Sequence record: PX853108.1
DNA: 64,000 nucleotides
Source: a phage
Strand: one strand, 5' to 3'
Shown: positions 2,881 to 48,010 of the stretch, in pieces
Layout: every line of letters begins with the position of its first letter
How positions within the stretch are numbered: the first letter of the stretch is position 1
Made by a program: the position numbers and the translations under genes
The notes under the pieces: generated by a model
Databases searched by the model: none
Told to the model about the DNA's origin: nothing
What the model saw: the letters and a program-made list of their open reading frames with translations, nothing else

Positions 2881-3570
2881 ATGAGTGAACTAACTAAGCA
2901 GCAGATTATTAATGCCTTACCTGCTAACTTCAAAAACAGTGTGACCCAGGAGTTGGTAGACACAATCAACAACATAACCCAAGACCAACTGGTTGCTGAG
3001 TCCTTCCGTGAAAACTTTATCTCCTACTCTGGTGTAATGAAGGAAGGTAAGTTTAAGACACAGGACTACATGAATGCAGTTCAGTATGTGACTTACAAAC
3101 ACATGGGTTACTCAAATAAGGAAGCCTACTTCAAGACATTCCCTAACCGACAAGCAGAACTTGTTGCACGAGGAACCAGTGAGAAAGACATTAGTGCTTA
3201 TGTATCCGCTTACCACAGAGGTAAGCTAGTTAACCTCATCATGGAACAAAGTTTGGTTCCAGTGTGGATTGTGAACCAGGACAACTATCAGAAGGCAATC
3301 AACGTTCAGGTTGAACTGATGACTACAGCAGCAAGTGAAAAAGTAAGATGTGATGCAGCTAACTCTATCCTTACTCACTTAGCTAAACCGAAAGACCAGG
3401 TAACGAATATCAATCTGGACTTGAGAGAGAACTCTGGATTAACTGACCTCAAGGCAACACTTGCTGCATTAGCTGAACAGCAAATTAACGCAATCAATAG
3501 TGGTGTACCTACCAAAGAGGTTGCTGGTTCTAAACTAGTACGTGCAGATGAGGACATTACAGATGTCTGA
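2881..3570 (+). CDS. Putative terminase small subunit / packaging protein
   Basis: 229 aa ORF immediately upstream of and overlapping the terminase large subunit (ATGTCTGA overlap); first gene of the plus-strand late block. Call rests on position only. Confidence 0.3.
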   Translation: MSELTKQQIINALPANFKNSVTQELVDTINNITQDQLVAESFRENFISYSGVMKEGKFKTQDYMNAVQYVTYKHMGYSNKEAYFKTFPNRQAELVARGTSEKDISAYVSAYHRGKLVNLIMEQSLVPVWIVNQDNYQKAINVQVELMTTAASEKVRCDAANSILTHLAKPKDQVTNINLDLRENSGLTDLKATLAALAEQQINAINSGVPTKEVAGSKLVRADEDITDV

Positions 3571-40415: not shown

Positions 40416-41168
40416 TTAAGCGTAGTATTCAGCCAGATGGTCTAAGAGTTTCTGGGCATCGTTATCAATGTAAGTCTCGGACTTATCGAACATACCCATT
40501 GGGGAACGAAGTCGTTTGCCAACAGACTTCTTGGTTGGACGGGTCTGGAATACGTGTTTATAGCCTAAGTCACGTTCTTCTTCCGTAATTTCTAGCATCT
40601 TGTTTCCGTACTTCTCCAGTTCTTTAATGTCTACACGTTCTGCGTAAACCACTGTAGAGAAGTAGGCTTCAAGCCCGTTATTCTTAAGAGAACCTTTCAC
40701 TGGGATGAATGTTTTCATCACACCGGCAGCTTCATCAAGTTCGTCTTTAGCATGTGCAGTAATGATTACTGGCTTACCAAACTTAACGACTTTCTGTTGC
40801 AGCAGTATCTTAAAGAACTGTGCAAAATCCCCCCATGCTTTCTGCGTATTTGCAGAAGGCAATACGTACTGGGATTCCAGCATATCCATCATAAAGGTTG
40901 CTGAGTCAATGATGATACCATCAACATCATCTGCCATTTCTCCACCAGGAGATGCAACATCAAATGCTTCCCAGATTTGGTAAGGGTCTTCAATGTTGTA
41001 AGTATTGAACTTGTTACGGAAAGGCAGACGCTTACCTGCTTCAGTATTCAGATAGAGCCAGCGTTCCTGGTTCCGGATGTTACGCAGTGATGCTGATTTA
41101 CCACTCGCAGAGAATCCTGCAATCAGGATTAGCTGAGTGTTCATATCATTGGGAATTGCTTCGGACAT
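40416..41168 (-). CDS. RecA-fold ATPase (AAA_24 / Sak4-like recombination protein)
   Basis: 250 aa; Walker A GFSASGKSA and Walker B IIIDSA. Confidence 0.5.
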   Translation of the reverse strand: MSEAIPNDMNTQLILIAGFSASGKSASLRNIRNQERWLYLNTEAGKRLPFRNKFNTYNIEDPYQIWEAFDVASPGGEMADDVDGIIIDSATFMMDMLESQYVLPSANTQKAWGDFAQFFKILLQQKVVKFGKPVIITAHAKDELDEAAGVMKTFIPVKGSLKNNGLEAYFSTVVYAERVDIKELEKYGNKMLEITEEERDLGYKHVFQTRPTKKSVGKRLRSPMGMFDKSETYIDNDAQKLLDHLAEYYA

Positions 41169-41224: not shown

Positions 41225-43378
41225 TTACTTGCCAGCGAAGCGTTTAGCCACGGTGACCATTACGGTTGCATTCAATTCATCATCTGGTAATGGATTAGCC
41301 AGTTTCTTATTGAATGAGTGGACGGCTTGCTGTACTTGGGCAAAATCCCAACCACTGTCAACCAATGCCAGTGCGTACTTAATCATTTGATTATTACGAT
41401 TACCGGTAGCAATACGACTAGCGAACCAACGCTCCAGATTATCCAAGGACTGTACTTCCTTCATCTGGTTCCGGAACTGCTCGTTCTTACTAGTACGAGG
41501 AATAAAGTCACGCACGTCCAACAGATTTGCTTCAAGGTTGTAATGATAAGAACCAGTCTCGCAGGACATCCATTTCTTGGCTCGTTGGTTAGCAGATTCA
41601 TCCGTTTCGAATGGTAGCCAAGACATAACGTTATTCATGAACTCTTTGTATTCCTCGGTGTCGAGGTGTAACTCATAGTTCATTGGAATAATCAGTCGGA
41701 AGCGGTTCTCTTCATCAGAATGACGCTTAGTGGTATAGGTCATGAACTTATATTCCTTCATTAGTTCATGGCACGTATGCAGTGGTACTCCACCATCACA
41801 GTCAATAACAATCATGTTAAATCCTGGAATAACGTTCTCTTCAGAACGGTGTCCATTCTTCATGTGATGGTTTACCCAGTGCATACCGGGAGCTTGGGTT
41901 AATACATGCAACTGGTCGAACGGTACACGTTCACCAATGTAGTCATAAGCAAAGCTATCACTATATGCCACTATCATCTCATTGATGTCAGTCTCTTTCA
42001 GAGTCTCACCACGGAAGAACTCAATACCTTCGTTGAAGGTTTTCTTAATGATGATGTGCTGTTTGTAGCCCCATGCTGTAGCAAGGGTCATCATCTCATT
42101 ACGAGCTGCATTGCCACTCTTATAGAACGGCAATGACTCTAGTAAGTCAGCATGAGTCACTTCTTTACCTACAGAGGCAATGTACTTAGCCAGCTTCACA
42201 TAGGCTTTCTCACGATTGAGAATACCCTGGAATGCTGCTCCAGATTCTTCTACAAGCAAAATTGCTTGTTTAAGATGAGACATCTCAATGAATGAACTCT
42301 GGTCAACAAATGCCAGTGCTCCAGCTAGTTTAAGTGCTTTGAAGTAACGGTGGGAGATTTCAGCCTTACGAATTTCTTCGTGGTCAGCCATAGCTTCTGC
42401 TTGTTTCTCACAATCAATTTTGTAAGTAATCAGAGCAATCCCCACTGCATCTTCTACAACCATCTTAAAGCCAAACAGGTTCGGGTCAGCCAGACTATGG
42501 AAGTGGTTAGCCCACTTACCAAGAGACTGTACGTTATCCTGCTTAATCAGGTTACGGTAGATTTCTTCCGGAGACATTGTTGCATGTGCTCGTTTGTCTA
42601 AATGCCCAATGGCAAACAGACAGCGACGTGCATATCCTGTATCGAGGAAGTCATAGAACTGGTCTTCAGTCTGACCACCATCCAGTAGCTTACTTGGTGT
42701 ACCAAACAACAACAGGTTAGCTGGAGTCTTACCATCCAGTTCTTCACCACGAACACTTTCAGCAGTGTTTTTGGTTAGCTTCTGCTTAACCTTACCCTGG
42801 TCATATAATTCCAGGAACAGGGTTAACACATCTGTGTTAGCCAGCAGGTTCGAACCAATTTCATCAATCTGAAGGTTGATTGAACCACACCCAGCCATTA
42901 ACAGCTTATGACGTAGCTGTTTAACTGCTGGTGGAGTACCAGAGTCAAACGTAAACGGATATGCCCCGGCACGTTTATACTCTGCTTCAACTTTATCAAA
43001 CTCATCATTCTGGTCTGTACCTTGACGAGCAGCACGTTCGTTAGCAATCTTCCATAAACGGTCATTTGCAATGACGGGCATGGTGTCTTCCATAAAGCGT
43101 TTACGGAAGCCAGTCATGAACCCGTCTTCAATAATATTTACCGAGTGACCTTTACCGAAACCAGATGTAGCCAACGCAATGGCGTAGATGTTTACCGGCA
43201 GGTCACCACGGTCTTTAGTTACAATGGTTGCACCCATGCAGGATGCCATTTTAGCCAAGAAGTAGGCTACTTCGACACGGAAAAATCCCCGGTCATTATT
43301 CTGGGTTTTATTGCAGAGCACATCTACGATTTCTTCAATCGCTGGATGGTGACTGATGCCAGTAAGGTCGATACTCAT
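41225..43378 (-). CDS. DNA primase (AEP-type prim-pol domain with PriCT-like C-terminus)
   Basis: 717 aa; N-terminal P-loop-like ATSGFGKGHS; C-terminal half has IVIDCDGG (DxD) and PLHTCHEL (His motif) as in archaeo-eukaryotic primases, then a PriCT-like tail. Confidence 0.5.
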   Translation of the reverse strand: MSIDLTGISHHPAIEEIVDVLCNKTQNNDRGFFRVEVAYFLAKMASCMGATIVTKDRGDLPVNIYAIALATSGFGKGHSVNIIEDGFMTGFRKRFMEDTMPVIANDRLWKIANERAARQGTDQNDEFDKVEAEYKRAGAYPFTFDSGTPPAVKQLRHKLLMAGCGSINLQIDEIGSNLLANTDVLTLFLELYDQGKVKQKLTKNTAESVRGEELDGKTPANLLLFGTPSKLLDGGQTEDQFYDFLDTGYARRCLFAIGHLDKRAHATMSPEEIYRNLIKQDNVQSLGKWANHFHSLADPNLFGFKMVVEDAVGIALITYKIDCEKQAEAMADHEEIRKAEISHRYFKALKLAGALAFVDQSSFIEMSHLKQAILLVEESGAAFQGILNREKAYVKLAKYIASVGKEVTHADLLESLPFYKSGNAARNEMMTLATAWGYKQHIIIKKTFNEGIEFFRGETLKETDINEMIVAYSDSFAYDYIGERVPFDQLHVLTQAPGMHWVNHHMKNGHRSEENVIPGFNMIVIDCDGGVPLHTCHELMKEYKFMTYTTKRHSDEENRFRLIIPMNYELHLDTEEYKEFMNNVMSWLPFETDESANQRAKKWMSCETGSYHYNLEANLLDVRDFIPRTSKNEQFRNQMKEVQSLDNLERWFASRIATGNRNNQMIKYALALVDSGWDFAQVQQAVHSFNKKLANPLPDDELNATVMVTVAKRFAGK

Positions 43379-43890
43379 TTGATTAATCCTACGCTCTTAT
43401 TAGTGACGGCATATTCTCCGAAGTATTTTACGGCAGCTAAGTCATACGCTTTGGCTGCTTCAATTGCTTCCAGGAATACACCTAAATGAATTGATTTACG
43501 GTTTACTTTGATTTTGGCTAAGTAGTTACCCCTGAACTTAGTAACACCCATAAAACCACTGGTGTTGTTTTTATTCAGTCCACGGTTAGCACCATTGGTG
43601 CTTTTATCCGCTTCCCTTAGATTGTCTATCCAGTTGTGGTGACGTATGGTGTCTTTATGGTCTATTAAACCAGTAGGCCACATACCGTACACGTACAACC
43701 AAGCTAACCTATGAGCAGCTTCCCGTTTGGAATCAACTGTTATGTAGAGATAACCGTCACTGTTATTGAGCGACCCAGCAACACTACCGACAGGTGTTCG
43801 GTTACTGAGGGAGATGCGGCGAGTAAATATCCCAGTAAGTGGGTCATAATGCAGCAACTCTTTTAGCCGTTGCTGAGTCAGCTTAATCAT
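43375..43890 (-). CDS. HNH homing endonuclease with C-terminal AP2 DNA-binding domain
   Basis: ORF 43375-43947 trimmed to ATG 43890 (MIKLTQQRLKELL), which overlaps the upstream stop as ATGA; HNH core HRLAWLYVYG...IDHKD...N..NLREA; AP2-like SGFMGVTKFRGNYLAKIKVNRKSIHLGVFLEAIEAAKAYDLAAVKYFGEYA. Confidence 0.75.
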   Translation of the reverse strand: MIKLTQQRLKELLHYDPLTGIFTRRISLSNRTPVGSVAGSLNNSDGYLYITVDSKREAAHRLAWLYVYGMWPTGLIDHKDTIRHHNWIDNLREADKSTNGANRGLNKNNTSGFMGVTKFRGNYLAKIKVNRKSIHLGVFLEAIEAAKAYDLAAVKYFGEYAVTNKSVGLIK

Positions 43891-44867
43891 GATGGAAAAT
43901 ATCTCTCTCTTTGTTTGCAAATGGACGCGACAGGGCAGTATAGACAACGCTTAACCTGCCCCTCCACGACCTTGATAGCACCCTTGCCACCTTTTTCAGC
44001 CATGAAGATACGAGCAGATGCCATATCGTCAAAGTTTTTAGTACTTCTGGCTCCAGGTACATCTACCTTAGAAGCATCAGAGAAGTATTTGAACTGTGGC
44101 TCTGTTCGCCACAACTCCTCGTCAGTACATTCAGGAATTTCCTCTTCAGGTGCATTCCAGTACTTCTCAATGAGGTGAATCTTCTCTTCTACCCAACGTT
44201 CAGTCTTATCGACAGATAGCAACGGAATATCCTTATGCATAATACGATTAGCAGGATAGTTCGGATTGCTATTAGCCATGTGCTTCATGAAGTCAGTGAA
44301 GATGTAGTTAATACGAATTACATCCTCGGTAATGATGTCGTTGTGAATCCAACGATACAAGCTGCCTTGCATCTTGTGTTCATCATCACGGGAACCAGCA
44401 ACCCAGGAATAGGTTGAAGTAGACTTAAAGTCCTGCAACAGACCTTCTGTTACGATGTCGAACTTACCACCGATAGTCCAACCCTTAACTACCCTGGTTC
44501 CACGTTGTTCAATGTAGATTGGGATAAGGTCAGGGTTAGCATCAAAGTCTGCTTCGGTTGGGTTAATGACTACTGCATCAATTACTCGTTGAGGATATCC
44601 CAACTTCTTCAATGCAGTTTTATGGCCTAACTTCCAGGCTTTCTCGATAGAATCATGTAAACCAGTACCCATTGATGTGGAGACAAAATCCATAACATCA
44701 ATCGACTGGTCACTAAGATCTACACGATGTTTCATGACGATTTGCTTAATAGGCTTAAGCAATGTAGTAACAGACAGGTACTTAGGATTGTCTACGTAAT
44801 CATACTCGTCATGTAATAGCCATACAGCCAGAGCCAGTGAAACATCATGGTTGTTGGTTATCTTCAT
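43887..44867 (-). CDS. PD-(D/E)xK nuclease, Cas4/RecB-like
   Basis: 326 aa; FDIVTEG...QDFK motif and C-terminal CLYCPVASIC (Cx2Cx5C) as in Cas4/RecB-family exonucleases. Confidence 0.5.
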   Translation of the reverse strand: MKITNNHDVSLALAVWLLHDEYDYVDNPKYLSVTTLLKPIKQIVMKHRVDLSDQSIDVMDFVSTSMGTGLHDSIEKAWKLGHKTALKKLGYPQRVIDAVVINPTEADFDANPDLIPIYIEQRGTRVVKGWTIGGKFDIVTEGLLQDFKSTSTYSWVAGSRDDEHKMQGSLYRWIHNDIITEDVIRINYIFTDFMKHMANSNPNYPANRIMHKDIPLLSVDKTERWVEEKIHLIEKYWNAPEEEIPECTDEELWRTEPQFKYFSDASKVDVPGARSTKNFDDMASARIFMAEKGGKGAIKVVEGQVKRCLYCPVASICKQRERYFPS

Positions 44868-45129
44868 TATAAGCCTTTTTCAATATGCGATTGGCATAGT
44901 GCACAATCTTCTCTGAGTCGTACACAGAAGAGTTTCCAGGTTTACCATTACCCATACGGGCAGCAGCATTTCGCCACAGAGCTTTAAAGGCACAACCTTC
45001 ATCGAAGGTCATGCCCAGTGCTTGGATAATATCCTCACACTCTGCTTGGTATGGCTCTTGCTCTTCCCGTTGGGGATTCTTAATTAGAACTACATAGTAG
45101 TTATTAAGACCACCGGAGAGCTTAGTCAT
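44845..45129 (-). CDS. Hypothetical protein
   Basis: 94 aa ORF; start overlaps the stop of the upstream gene (ATGA at 45129). Confidence 0.4.
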   Translation of the reverse strand: MTKLSGGLNNYYVVLIKNPQREEQEPYQAECEDIIQALGMTFDEGCAFKALWRNAAARMGNGKPGNSSVYDSEKIVHYANRILKKAYNEDNQQP

Positions 45130-45434
45130 TATTTATCCTTAGGAATCATGTTTGCCTGGAACTCTGGTTCAGACATCAGACCCAGGTTGCTAAGAGACAG
45201 ATAAACAATGTCTTTCAAGTCAACTGAGGTATCGAAACGCTGGTCCAGACTAATCTTCATGGAGTGATTGGCACGGGCCAAATCTTTATAAGTCACATAA
45301 GGTTCATCAGTGAGCAACATTGTGTTCATGGTAAGCAGGGAACCATCATCCACTTTAGGAAGTTGGAAGACTACCTGTGCTGCTACCATCCAATGATATT
45401 TTCTGACTACAGTTTCTTTAGTACTTTTGGTCAT
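45129..45434 (-). CDS. Hypothetical protein
   Basis: 101 aa ORF; translationally coupled to the DNA polymerase gene. Confidence 0.4.
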   Translation of the reverse strand: MTKSTKETVVRKYHWMVAAQVVFQLPKVDDGSLLTMNTMLLTDEPYVTYKDLARANHSMKISLDQRFDTSVDLKDIVYLSLSNLGLMSEPEFQANMIPKDK

Positions 45435-48010
45435 GCGAATGCCTTTTGAATTATTTGATGAACTTCTTCTGGGGTAGCGTGATTTGGAATTTCAATCTCG
45501 TTAGCCCACGTTGGGTAGAACAAGGATAGTTCCCCACCCAAACCAACTTCTGGATGAGCAATATCAGGATGATCTTGCCAGTTAACAGCTTCAACCAAGT
45601 GCTTGTTCGTGAACTGCAAGGTATCCATGTTGTCACGAATCATGAAGTACTGGGCATCATGAATATGAATACTAGGACGAATATCTAACCTGAACTCACT
45701 GGCTCTGACTTTACGCATAAACTCTGAACCAGCACGGTTATTCAGTAGACACCAGCTTTGCCCTAAAGCATTACCAGCAGTTCTGCCTTCTGCTTCTGCT
45801 TCATACGGAGTCTTACATGTCCCACGTAAAACCTGAGCCAGTAAAGGAGTACGCACTCTCAAACCGAATGCGGCAGTAACATAACCAGTTTTGGCAGCTT
45901 CGTCCAGTTTAGCCTGAACCCACATGTCGCTAACTACATAGAGGTCGTGATAACGTTTCTCTGTAGTCTTAGCCTTTTCTTCAGAGAAGCCACAGTTTTT
46001 CATTAAACCCATATACGTACCACCATAAGTAAGCAAGAAGGTTGGAGCCTTCGAGTCACTACGTAATGATTTGTACTTATGCTGGATGGAGTTAATGGAT
46101 TCTACTGTGTCTTCGATATCTGGCATCTGCTCACCGAAGTAAGCATATGCACGGAGACTGTGCCCATCATAACCATCGGTATATACCTTAAGCTTCTGTG
46201 GGTCTTTAGTAGTTAAAGCTGAGATACGGTCTTCAAGGCTTGCAAAGTCCAGTCCACAAAAGATCCAACCTGGTGGGGCTTCGAAGCATTTTTTAATCTT
46301 CTTGGCATATTTGGAGCCAGACGGTATGGTTTGCAAGTTTGGCTCGGAGGCAGATAATCTACCAGAAACCGTTCCCCCCAGATTGAGGTTGCCGAATAGA
46401 TAGTGCCAGCCATCCGGTCCTGGTTGTGCATTCCTGAAAGCCGGGATGAAGCTAGTGATAATCTTATCCACGAGCTTATAGTCGATAAGTGCATTGAGCA
46501 GTTCCTTAACATCTTCACTCTGCGTATGTGTACGCAGTGCTTTAATAGTGTCACCGTCAGTAGCAGGTTGCTTGCTCTTAGTAAGACCAAGAACTGGTAA
46601 GCCAATATAATCAAATAACAGCTTCTGTAGTTGTGGACCAGAGTTTGGATTAAACTCGATGTCACAGTCAGCAAGCGTTACTTGCTTCTTCTTGAGCTTA
46701 GCATTCTTATCATCTACCCATTCCTGACGAAGCATCAGGGTAAAGTTCTTCATGAGCTTAGACTCACGAATAGTTTTCAGAGCTTGGTTCCTGTCAGTTT
46801 CCATCTCCTTAGCTACTTGGTTAACGGTATCCATATTCATAGGCATACCGGTTAATTGCATCTGGATGATGTCTTCACAAGCTGGCTTAAAGATGTTGTT
46901 GTAAACATCTAGCTGGTCATCAGCAATTAGAGTATCCCAGTGCTTCTCGTAGGTGTACCAGGTACACAAACCATCAATGAGGTTGTAGCGTAACAGCTGC
47001 TCATTGGGGATAAGACAAATGTCTTTAATATCATCCTGAGCATAGTTACCAGCATACTCCTGAGCCTGGTCTTTCAGACTAAGGTGATTGCCAGCACAAC
47101 TATTAGTAGCCAGATAGGTGATTAACTTAGTGCAATCCCAGTTACGTAGCATGATTTCCATGCCATGCAGTAAGCCTTCCGTATCAATCAGGTTATCCAT
47201 GAATAACTGATAGATGAGTACGTACACGTCATAGCTAATGTTGTGATACATCTGCCGTTGGGTGTACTTAATAAAGAACTCACGTAGAAGATTTCGAACA
47301 ATATCATTTCTGTTGATACGCCCATAAGGTGCTTCAGTAGCCCCAGGGATTGGCTCGTAGTCCACATTAAAGGCTATGCCTTGTGTCTTACTCCAACAGA
47401 GTGTAATTGTCCCTATACCGGCGTTATAGTGCTTTAAACCAAATGCCTCAATGTCTATAGCTAATGGCTTATTCATCTCAAGCAACTGGTCTAGCCAGGC
47501 TTTAATTTTCTCTGGAGTATCTGGATAGGCTTCAAACTCAATGATTCCCTGACCTGGTTCAGCATACTGTCCACGTATGTGGTTAAGTAATGCATCCATA
47601 CCCTGAGCAATCTTAGATTTCACTACAGGTGGATCATAGAAGACCTGCCTGTAGCTGGGTGCATAGATAACCTTCTGTTTACCCCATACTGAGTCACAAA
47701 CATAGCCGAGGTTAGCCTCTGCTTTAGCCTCTTTAGTCAGTATTTTGAAGTAGTCAGAATCGGTACAGATAATGTATTGAGTCTCTGCATCATCCAGTAC
47801 TTGTTGCAGTTCCTGCTGTATGAACTCTTTAATTTCCCTTGCAGGAGTCTTCTTCTTGCCTGGGGCAGAATGAAGTTCAATGAAGATGAAATCTTCCATG
47901 CTTAGGTCATTAGGCAGCAGGTAGGTTTTAATCATCTCCTCCCTTCGGATTTGATGACCGAGGATAGCAATAGGATACTTACCCGTATCTTGAGAGGTGA
48001 TGTAACGCAT
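45431..48010 (-). CDS. DNA polymerase, family A, with 3'-5' exonuclease domain
   Basis: 859 aa; Exo I-like LAIDIEAFG; motif A GLDFASLEDRI; motif B SDSKAPTFLLTYGG (K...YG); HD motif IHIHDAQ. Confidence 0.85.
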   Translation of the reverse strand: MRYITSQDTGKYPIAILGHQIRREEMIKTYLLPNDLSMEDFIFIELHSAPGKKKTPAREIKEFIQQELQQVLDDAETQYIICTDSDYFKILTKEAKAEANLGYVCDSVWGKQKVIYAPSYRQVFYDPPVVKSKIAQGMDALLNHIRGQYAEPGQGIIEFEAYPDTPEKIKAWLDQLLEMNKPLAIDIEAFGLKHYNAGIGTITLCWSKTQGIAFNVDYEPIPGATEAPYGRINRNDIVRNLLREFFIKYTQRQMYHNISYDVYVLIYQLFMDNLIDTEGLLHGMEIMLRNWDCTKLITYLATNSCAGNHLSLKDQAQEYAGNYAQDDIKDICLIPNEQLLRYNLIDGLCTWYTYEKHWDTLIADDQLDVYNNIFKPACEDIIQMQLTGMPMNMDTVNQVAKEMETDRNQALKTIRESKLMKNFTLMLRQEWVDDKNAKLKKKQVTLADCDIEFNPNSGPQLQKLLFDYIGLPVLGLTKSKQPATDGDTIKALRTHTQSEDVKELLNALIDYKLVDKIITSFIPAFRNAQPGPDGWHYLFGNLNLGGTVSGRLSASEPNLQTIPSGSKYAKKIKKCFEAPPGWIFCGLDFASLEDRISALTTKDPQKLKVYTDGYDGHSLRAYAYFGEQMPDIEDTVESINSIQHKYKSLRSDSKAPTFLLTYGGTYMGLMKNCGFSEEKAKTTEKRYHDLYVVSDMWVQAKLDEAAKTGYVTAAFGLRVRTPLLAQVLRGTCKTPYEAEAEGRTAGNALGQSWCLLNNRAGSEFMRKVRASEFRLDIRPSIHIHDAQYFMIRDNMDTLQFTNKHLVEAVNWQDHPDIAHPEVGLGGELSLFYPTWANEIEIPNHATPEEVHQIIQKAFA

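Follow-up and report, generated by a model that had tools for sequence, protein, structure and literature searches.

The replication module of the phage sequence PX853108.1 raises the question of why a gene for a protein of 171 amino acids (aa) lies between the genes for an exonuclease and a DNA primase, and whether it serves the phage or mainly its own spread. The window analysed here, the whole stretch of 64,000 nucleotides (nt), was assigned by megablast to the genus Gamaleyavirus, i.e., to the G7C-like, N4-like E. coli podophages of the Schitoviridae, with vB_EcoP-ZQ2 as top match (95% identity over 5 kb). An initial annotation had proposed that the gene codes for a free-standing HNH nuclease with an AP2 DNA-binding domain and represents a mobile selfish element. 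Our analysis leads to the same answer: with a probability of roughly 85%, it is a free-standing HNH-AP2 homing endonuclease gene of an N4-like coliphage, its activity being predicted from sequence. The gene is embedded in the following features:

43375..43890, minus strand: predicted homing endonuclease gene (HNH + AP2, 171 aa), with ATG at 43890 and TGA at 43375-43377, from the list of open reading frames (ORFs) and the sequence
43887..43890, minus strand: ATGA junction of exonuclease stop and endonuclease start, read from the sequence as tcat on the plus strand
43375..43378, minus strand: ATGA junction of endonuclease stop and primase start, likewise read as tcat on the plus strand
43887..44867, minus strand: upstream flank, N4 gp42-like PD-(D/E)XK / Cas4-type exonuclease, 326 aa (PHROG 2139)
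41225..43378, minus strand: downstream flank, N4 gp43-like DNA primase, 717 aa (PHROG 2135, PriCT_1)

Aligning the window with Shigella phage pSb-1 revealed exactly 513 extra bases in the window. Where the gene is absent, the stop of the exonuclease and the start of the primase overlap in one ATGA (...TTTTCCATCATGAGTATTGACC...), and the TCATGA found at the exonuclease/endonuclease junction of the window equals this exonuclease-stop/primase-start junction. The insertion recreates the original ATGA coupling at the primase start. The exonuclease and primase are both full length and collinear with their empty-site versions, so the endonuclease gene is free-standing between two intact ORFs and lies in neither an intron nor an intein. 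This agrees with the initial annotation, which had placed the gene between the primase and a Cas4-like nuclease gene with ATGA overlaps on both sides.

The junction is occupied in five Gamaleyaviruses of the phage collection (ZQ2, PhAPEC5, PBM-2, PBM-3 and UE-M6), whose genes are 98.6-99.6% identical at the nucleotide level, and Shigella virus Moo19, which belongs to a different genus, carries the gene with 80% nucleotide identity at the same junction. Using 120-nt queries spanning the junction, we counted about 33 distinct Gamaleyaviruses in the phage collection whose junction is empty and uninterrupted, and about 14 additional empty contigs were obtained from IMG/VR and metagenomes. The search pattern of the metagenome scan began with C and detects empty and Moo19-type junctions, not the occupied junctions of the window type or of the type of contig L028 (see below); its 84 matches were mostly due to chance and were filtered by the upstream exonuclease sequence. 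One candidate for an occupied site from the IMG/VR scan (L022) was rejected, as its site is empty and it derives from a distant phage whose exonuclease merely happens to end with ...ATCAAATGA. Sporadic presence combined with intact empty-site alleles in close relatives is the pattern looked for in a homing endonuclease gene. The proposed insertion is borne out by the comparison with relatives lacking the gene, which gave an exact 513-bp insertion and five occupied versus about 33 empty Gamaleyaviruses instead of universal conservation at this position.

The gene has moved independently of its neighbours. While the genes of the carriers are nearly identical, their flanks agree to 92-97%. The synonymous divergence (dS) among carriers is 0.018-0.054 in the gene, compared with 0.065-0.117 for the first 300 nt of the primase, 0.15-0.26 for the exonuclease and 0.34-0.57 for the distal primase, leaving the dS of the gene about 4-30 times below that of the flanks within Gamaleyavirus. 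This clearly indicates a recent horizontal spread. Two contigs from Logan (L028 and L029) present the reverse case: they derive from Gamaleyaviruses with flanks 96-97% identical to the window, yet their gene is only 77.5% identical at the nucleotide level. Their primase genes show 83% identity to the window over nt 1-100, 88% over nt 101-210 and 95-97% beyond, which indicates that a cassette consisting of the gene and about 210 nt of primase was imported from a diverged donor. The five other carriers also share the beginning of the primase gene, their diversity rising from 0.7-4% over its first 300 nt to 11-19% further downstream. We delimited the shared part as follows:

43079..43378, minus strand: co-conversion tract covering ~200-300 nt at the primase 5' end, from diversity, dS and the L028 allele

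These data uphold the view of the gene as a mobile element. A sharp L028 boundary at the exonuclease stop was considered and dropped, as L028 and the window are identical over the last ~150 nt of the exonuclease. Further inside the primase gene (nt ~420-1080, window 42299-42959), the Gamaleyaviruses exhibit a mosaic hypervariable zone with 11-19% pairwise divergence versus 3-6% elsewhere, in which the sharing of haplotype blocks cuts across presence or absence of the endonuclease gene.

Looking further afield, homologues with 69%, 64% and 62% aa identity (P0005, P0006 and P0007) were found on contigs of more distant N4-like phages, all between exonuclease and primase. The flanks of the P0005 and P0007 contigs share 48-50% aa identity with the window in the exonuclease and 66-68% in the primase, and the ATGA overlaps recur on the P0006 contig. 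The lineage has apparently been faithful to the exonuclease|primase junction over long times. Such flank-like divergence of the HNH protein (62-69%) at one and the same junction would also be expected for a resident, vertically inherited accessory gene which is no longer mobile and owes its patchy distribution to repeated precise loss, and the Moo19 gene, whose flanks are 78-82% identical to those of the window, fits this pattern as well. Within Gamaleyavirus, the very low dS of the gene relative to its flanks and the occurrence of the 77.5% allele, accompanied by its own primase tract, in a phage background of 96-97% identity speak against vertical residence. Moreover, precise loss would leave empty sites that retain the primase codons typical of carriers, and none were found (see below). 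We therefore regard vertical residence as very unlikely.

These codons are located in a short patch directly behind the insertion:

43352..43370, minus strand: endonuclease-linked substitution patch, primase nt 9-27, codons 3-9, from the alignment of carriers and empty sites

When the genes for the exonuclease (981 nt) and for the primase (2154 nt) of five carriers and seven non-carriers were aligned, the sole fixed differences between the two groups within these 3.1 kb of flanking sequence were at primase nt 9, 18, 21, 22 and 26, i.e., 5-22 nt past the insertion point. Two of them did not hold as fixed in a larger set, since T was present at nt 9 of L028 and at nt 18 of L019 and L110, leaving nt 21, 22 and 26 as diagnostic positions. 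The carriers read ...ACTGGCATCAGT (Gly-Ile-Ser) and the empty sites ...ACCGGAGTAGTG or ...ACCGGAGTCACT (Gly-Val-Val/Thr), with GGAGTAGTG in the empty-allele form versus GGCATCAGT. Among all sequences analysed, each of the 27 empty loci (about 22 of them distinct) contained GGAGT at nt 19-23, coding for Gly-Val followed by Val or Thr, whereas all ten occupied loci (about nine distinct, representing three alleles and two genera including that of Moo19) followed the pattern G[GA][CT]AT...AG[TC], coding for Ile-Ser. Among the empty junctions, type A is represented by St11Ph5 and type B by pSb-1 or HK2. Because the type A non-carriers are otherwise nearly identical to the carriers over primase nt 30-360, the patch is very local. 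A search of the phage collection with a chimeric query for an empty site containing the carrier patch yielded no such site, the best empty (single-piece) junction showing 94.2% identity.

Thus, the carriers differ from the empty allele close to the insertion, and the patch is completely associated with occupancy, as looked for in an endonuclease that spares its own genome. We infer that ACCGGAGT may mark the place where the enzyme recognises or cuts the empty allele and that carriers would be shielded by their recoded codons. The comparison names a concrete candidate target, primase nt ~9-30, for which putative sensitive and protected alleles are readily available. The same sequence evidence, including a target-like patch which differs between carriers and non-carriers, would be left by a gene serving mainly as a weapon in competition between phages, whose nuclease cuts relatives in the same cell so as to keep out their markers or genomes, its own spread being only a by-product. 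Because the molecular steps are identical, sequence cannot separate such a weapon from a homing endonuclease. However, the transfer of the L028 cassette was clean, and the recipients survived and gained the gene; we see only a slim chance that competition is the main role.

The gene product consists of two domains:

43591..43719, minus strand: HNH (His-Me finger) catalytic core, residues 58-100, with D77-H78, N86, N90 and N99 conserved
43393..43557, minus strand: AP2/ERF-type DNA-binding domain, residues ~112-166, three strands and a helix

The protein matched Pfam HNH_3 (PF13392) over residues 58-100 with E=1.1e-10 and 41.5 bits, well above the family cut-off of 24.8, and PHROG 99 'HNH endonuclease' with E=1.5e-65. 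We gathered 695 homologues at E<=1e-5 and aligned 50 of them to obtain a family profile. In these 50 sequences, H78 and N99 are invariant, conservation is at least 90% at D77, N86 and N90, and the window protein has all five residues. Among solved nucleases, the closest is I-HmuI (PDB 1u3e), an HNH homing endonuclease which is encoded by an intron of Bacillus phage SPO1 and has a C-terminal DNA-binding region other than AP2. It was matched by positions 40-121 of the family profile with E=1.7e-7, and the modelled fold of our protein resembles this solved homing endonuclease; the catalytic roles of D77, H78, N86, N90 and N99 are assigned by analogy with I-HmuI. Because the single-sequence match to Pfam AP2 (PF00847) stayed below the threshold (E=0.033, 14.9 bits versus a cut-off of 33.3), the AP2 domain needed support from profile and structure comparisons. 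Many full-length proteins among the 695 homologues carry precomputed matches to both PF00847 and PF13392. The 50-sequence profile matched the plant AP2/ERF structures of WRI1 (7wq5, E=3e-13) and TEM1 (7et4, E=4e-8), followed by ERF096 (E=3e-5) and AtERF1 (1gcc, E=2.7e-4) at profile positions 107-166. An AlphaFold model built from the alignment (predicted local distance difference test score, pLDDT, of 95.6) ends with three strands and a helix, forming a three-stranded antiparallel sheet packed on the helix, which is superposable on solved AP2 domains. This confirms the AP2 domain, and both domains named in the initial annotation are indeed present.

Since the ratio of non-synonymous to synonymous divergence (dN/dS) versus the divergent alleles is 0.10-0.14, the endonuclease protein is under purifying selection. 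Together with the tight translational coupling to exonuclease and primase and the long association with their junction, this is compatible with a domesticated factor kept for the benefit of the phage, for instance by regulating the replication operon as an AP2-type factor or by assisting replication or recombination as a helper nuclease. Yet about 85% of the close relatives are viable phages without the gene, and the catalytic HNH residues are intact. NCBIfam gave zero matches for the endonuclease gene or either neighbour, and PADLOC returned nothing but a generic 'homing endonuclease' model (E=2.8e-5); a defence role is therefore without support, and there was no match to another functional family either. 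Finally, the same junction is occupied in phage EC1-UPM by an unrelated HNH-AP2 gene (33% aa identity), which fits competition for a site rather than a conserved function. Domestication hence appears improbable to us.

The EC1-UPM gene (gp47, 162 aa, L003 2867-3355) is flanked by strongly divergent stretches, comprising the last ~35 nt of the exonuclease and the first ~100 nt of the primase gene. A third HNH-AP2 gene, gp41.1 of G7C, is 52% identical to the window gene at the aa level and is located between gp41 and the exonuclease gene. The module of the Gamaleyaviruses therefore contains three different HNH-AP2 genes at two adjacent junctions, and boundaries of divergence coincide with the gene, in line with the recombination hotspot suspected from the start. 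Gp41.1 and gp47 share the architecture and the location in the replication module with the window gene, but the insertion site of gp41.1 is a different one, and gp47 is associated with different flanking substitutions at the same site, which implies different target specificities. The GenBank record of the EC1-UPM region contains the name 'pathogenesis-related transcriptional factor and ERF protein'; this name is of the AP2 type and probably refers to gp47. A paralogous HNH gene is present in the module of G7C, EC1-UPM, ECBP1, Bp4, PD38, PW8, Mimir124 and 24-32N (L005 3264-3761 in G7C and L003 4326-4718 in EC1-UPM), equivalent to a position near 44867 of the window. In G7C and EC1-UPM, where positions were checked, the paralogue is preceded by a second copy of the first 58-65 nt of the exonuclease gene. 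The gp41.1-type gene of EC1-UPM is N-terminally truncated (130 aa).

Taken further, one lineage of HNH-AP2 genes may have followed a single junction across deeply diverged N4-like phages (flanks of ~50-68% aa identity), persisting by invasion, allele replacement and competition with an unrelated HNH-AP2 gene, with primase codons 7-9 as the arena of an arms race. We put this forward tentatively and would rather bet against it than for it. If the patch is the recognition site, this history would provide a natural series of matched enzyme alleles and targets for reading the DNA specificity of AP2-type domains.

From these results, the following mechanism can be proposed for the homing endonuclease. 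The gene would be co-transcribed and, because of the ATGA overlaps, translationally coupled with the replication genes, and primase translation would be kept intact by these overlaps on both sides and by a motif supplied by the gene itself:

43387..43390, minus strand: Shine-Dalgarno-like AGGA motif for the primase, within the 3' end of the endonuclease gene, from the sequence

This AGGA is placed 9-12 nt upstream of the primase ATG and derives from conserved C-terminal codons of the endonuclease (motif ending GLI). Equivalent AGGA or GAGG motifs precede the primase ATG in other alleles and in distant homologues, suggesting that it acts in primase translation. Because of the ATGA coupling and the AGGA provided by the gene, its insertion should cost the phage little. 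An own promoter was not supported by a scan for sigma-70-like sites (11 versus 14.5 in shuffled sequences), which does not cover N4-like middle promoters. Terminator-like sites were counted 11 times versus 4.8 in shuffled sequences, and one of them (43756-43774) is located inside the endonuclease gene, in the same orientation.

The protein, probably a monomer, would read DNA with its AP2 domain and N-terminal beta-hairpins and cut or nick it with an I-HmuI-like HNH site. In a mixed infection, the enzyme would attack the exonuclease/primase junction of a related phage without the gene, the likeliest target being the first ~30 nt of the primase gene around the sequence given above. Recombinational repair off the carrier genome would then copy the 513-bp gene together with a variable stretch of ~30 to ~300 nt of the donor primase 5' end. 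The carrier would be protected by its recoded primase codons 7-9 (Gly-Ile-Ser instead of Gly-Val-Val/Thr) and possibly also by the insertion splitting the site. Transfer of the gene with a primase 5' cassette explains the local mosaicism of the replication module in phages isolated for therapy.

Several points weigh against this reading of the gene as an active homing endonuclease. The shared tract is one-sided, extending at most ~36 nt into the exonuclease (the carriers diverge from one another 36-56 nt upstream) versus ~200-300 nt into the primase gene, and such one-sided co-conversion is not predicted by a simple symmetric break-repair model. The substitution patch could be merely the most tightly linked part of the donor flank and not a recognition site. 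The Moo19 gene has diverged from the window copy to a similar extent as its flanks, which would also result from long vertical residence and loss in other phages. The counts of occupied and empty sites are raw numbers, uncorrected for phylogeny and duplicate records. Finally, the papers searched contained neither a study of this specific gene nor any biochemical or genetic assay of cleavage or homing for this protein or a close relative.

The kind of gene is already well described, and near-identical copies are annotated as 'HNH homing endonuclease' in PhAPEC5, ZQ2, PBM-2, PBM-3 and UE-M6. The family of HNH-AP2 homing endonucleases reportedly goes back to Magnani et al. (2004, Plant Cell) and Wuitschick et al. 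(2004, Eukaryot Cell). It has been discussed by Barth et al. 2023, citing Magnani et al. 2004 (PMC10448857), and HNH-AP2 homing endonuclease genes are a counted category in T4-related phages such as RB49, RB43, RB16 and JSE (PMC2993671). Like those of the T4-related phages, the window gene is small, phage-borne, free-standing and sporadic and codes for an N-terminal HNH and a C-terminal AP2 domain, but its host is an N4-like podophage and its site the exonuclease|primase junction. It also differs from I-HmuI, which is intron-encoded and has, by description, a C-terminal region other than AP2.

A parallel in terms of lifestyle is the 'intronless homing' of T4 mobE (HNH; PMC2790892) and SegF/SegG (GIY-YIG; PMC2988022). 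These are likewise free-standing genes between conserved genes, and their spread in mixed infections, break repair, co-conversion of flanks and altered target in the carrier match the lifestyle proposed for the window gene, whose DNA-binding module, AP2, is a different one. The free-standing T4 enzymes reportedly cut hundreds to thousands of bp away from their genes (PMC2988022), whereas the linked patch in the window lies 5-23 nt from the insertion point and the candidate site is thus within ~25 nt of the gene, more like those of intron-encoded enzymes. The combination of HNH and AP2 in a lytic phage is shared with IPA-HNH of the Vibrio phage ICP1, and the location at a boundary between conserved and divergent sequence follows the pattern of 'nuclease genes at boundaries of genetic exchange' (PMC10448857). 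The IPA-HNH domains have been described as too divergent for the Pfam HNH_3 profile (PMC10448857). Because the window protein passes HNH_3, it is set apart by this published definition and belongs to the canonical HNH_3-AP2 group. With three HNH-AP2 lineages at two adjacent junctions, the module is useful for studies of the influence of homing endonucleases on the boundaries of recombination in lytic phages.

The start codon and the neighbours were assigned as follows. An alternative TTG start at 43947 would extend the endonuclease to 190 aa and was chosen in the PhAPEC5 annotation, but the N-termini of the aligned homologues (n=50) favour the ATG at 43890. The upstream neighbour matched PHROG 2139 'exonuclease' with E=9e-152 and, more weakly, the Cas4-type family phrog_1706 (CRISPR/Cas-associated, E=2.5e-10), while its match to Pfam PDDEXK_1 (PD-(D/E)XK) was below threshold. 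The downstream neighbour matched PHROG 2135 'DNA primase' with E=0 and PriCT_1 with E=9e-7. In the annotations of relatives, the two flanks are named exonuclease or N4 gp42-like and DNA primase, respectively. The exonuclease gene of pSb-1 contains one extra A (L002 about 2983-3040; ATGGACTGAAAA vs ATGGCTGAAAA), which truncates the annotated gene and probably reflects either an error in sequencing or a frameshift of recent origin.

Further differences among the phages were observed in the surrounding genes. The N4 gp41-like ORF of the window (44845-45129) is a short form of 94 aa which runs 23 nt into the exonuclease gene and lacks ~205-222 bp, coding for the C-terminal ~60-70 aa, directly upstream of the exonuclease start (44867-44885). 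The long form is present in St11Ph5, G7C, PhAPEC5 and PBM-3, the short one in ZQ2, HK2, pSb-1, Bas96 and Moonfish. The DNA polymerase gene of the window (45431-48010, 859 aa) is uninterrupted, whereas in the annotation of PhAPEC5 (L006) a 672-bp intron with an HNH endonuclease gene splits the polymerase gene. The annotation of Moonfish (L012) contains the same split polymerase with an adjacent HNH gene, and L028 has an HNH ORF within a split polymerase gene. In Bas96 (L010 1-669), a Sak4-like/AAA_24 gene is annotated as two joined pieces overlapping a 'restriction endonuclease' ORF, which suggests another intervening mobile element; its equivalent in the window (40416-41168, 250 aa) is intact.

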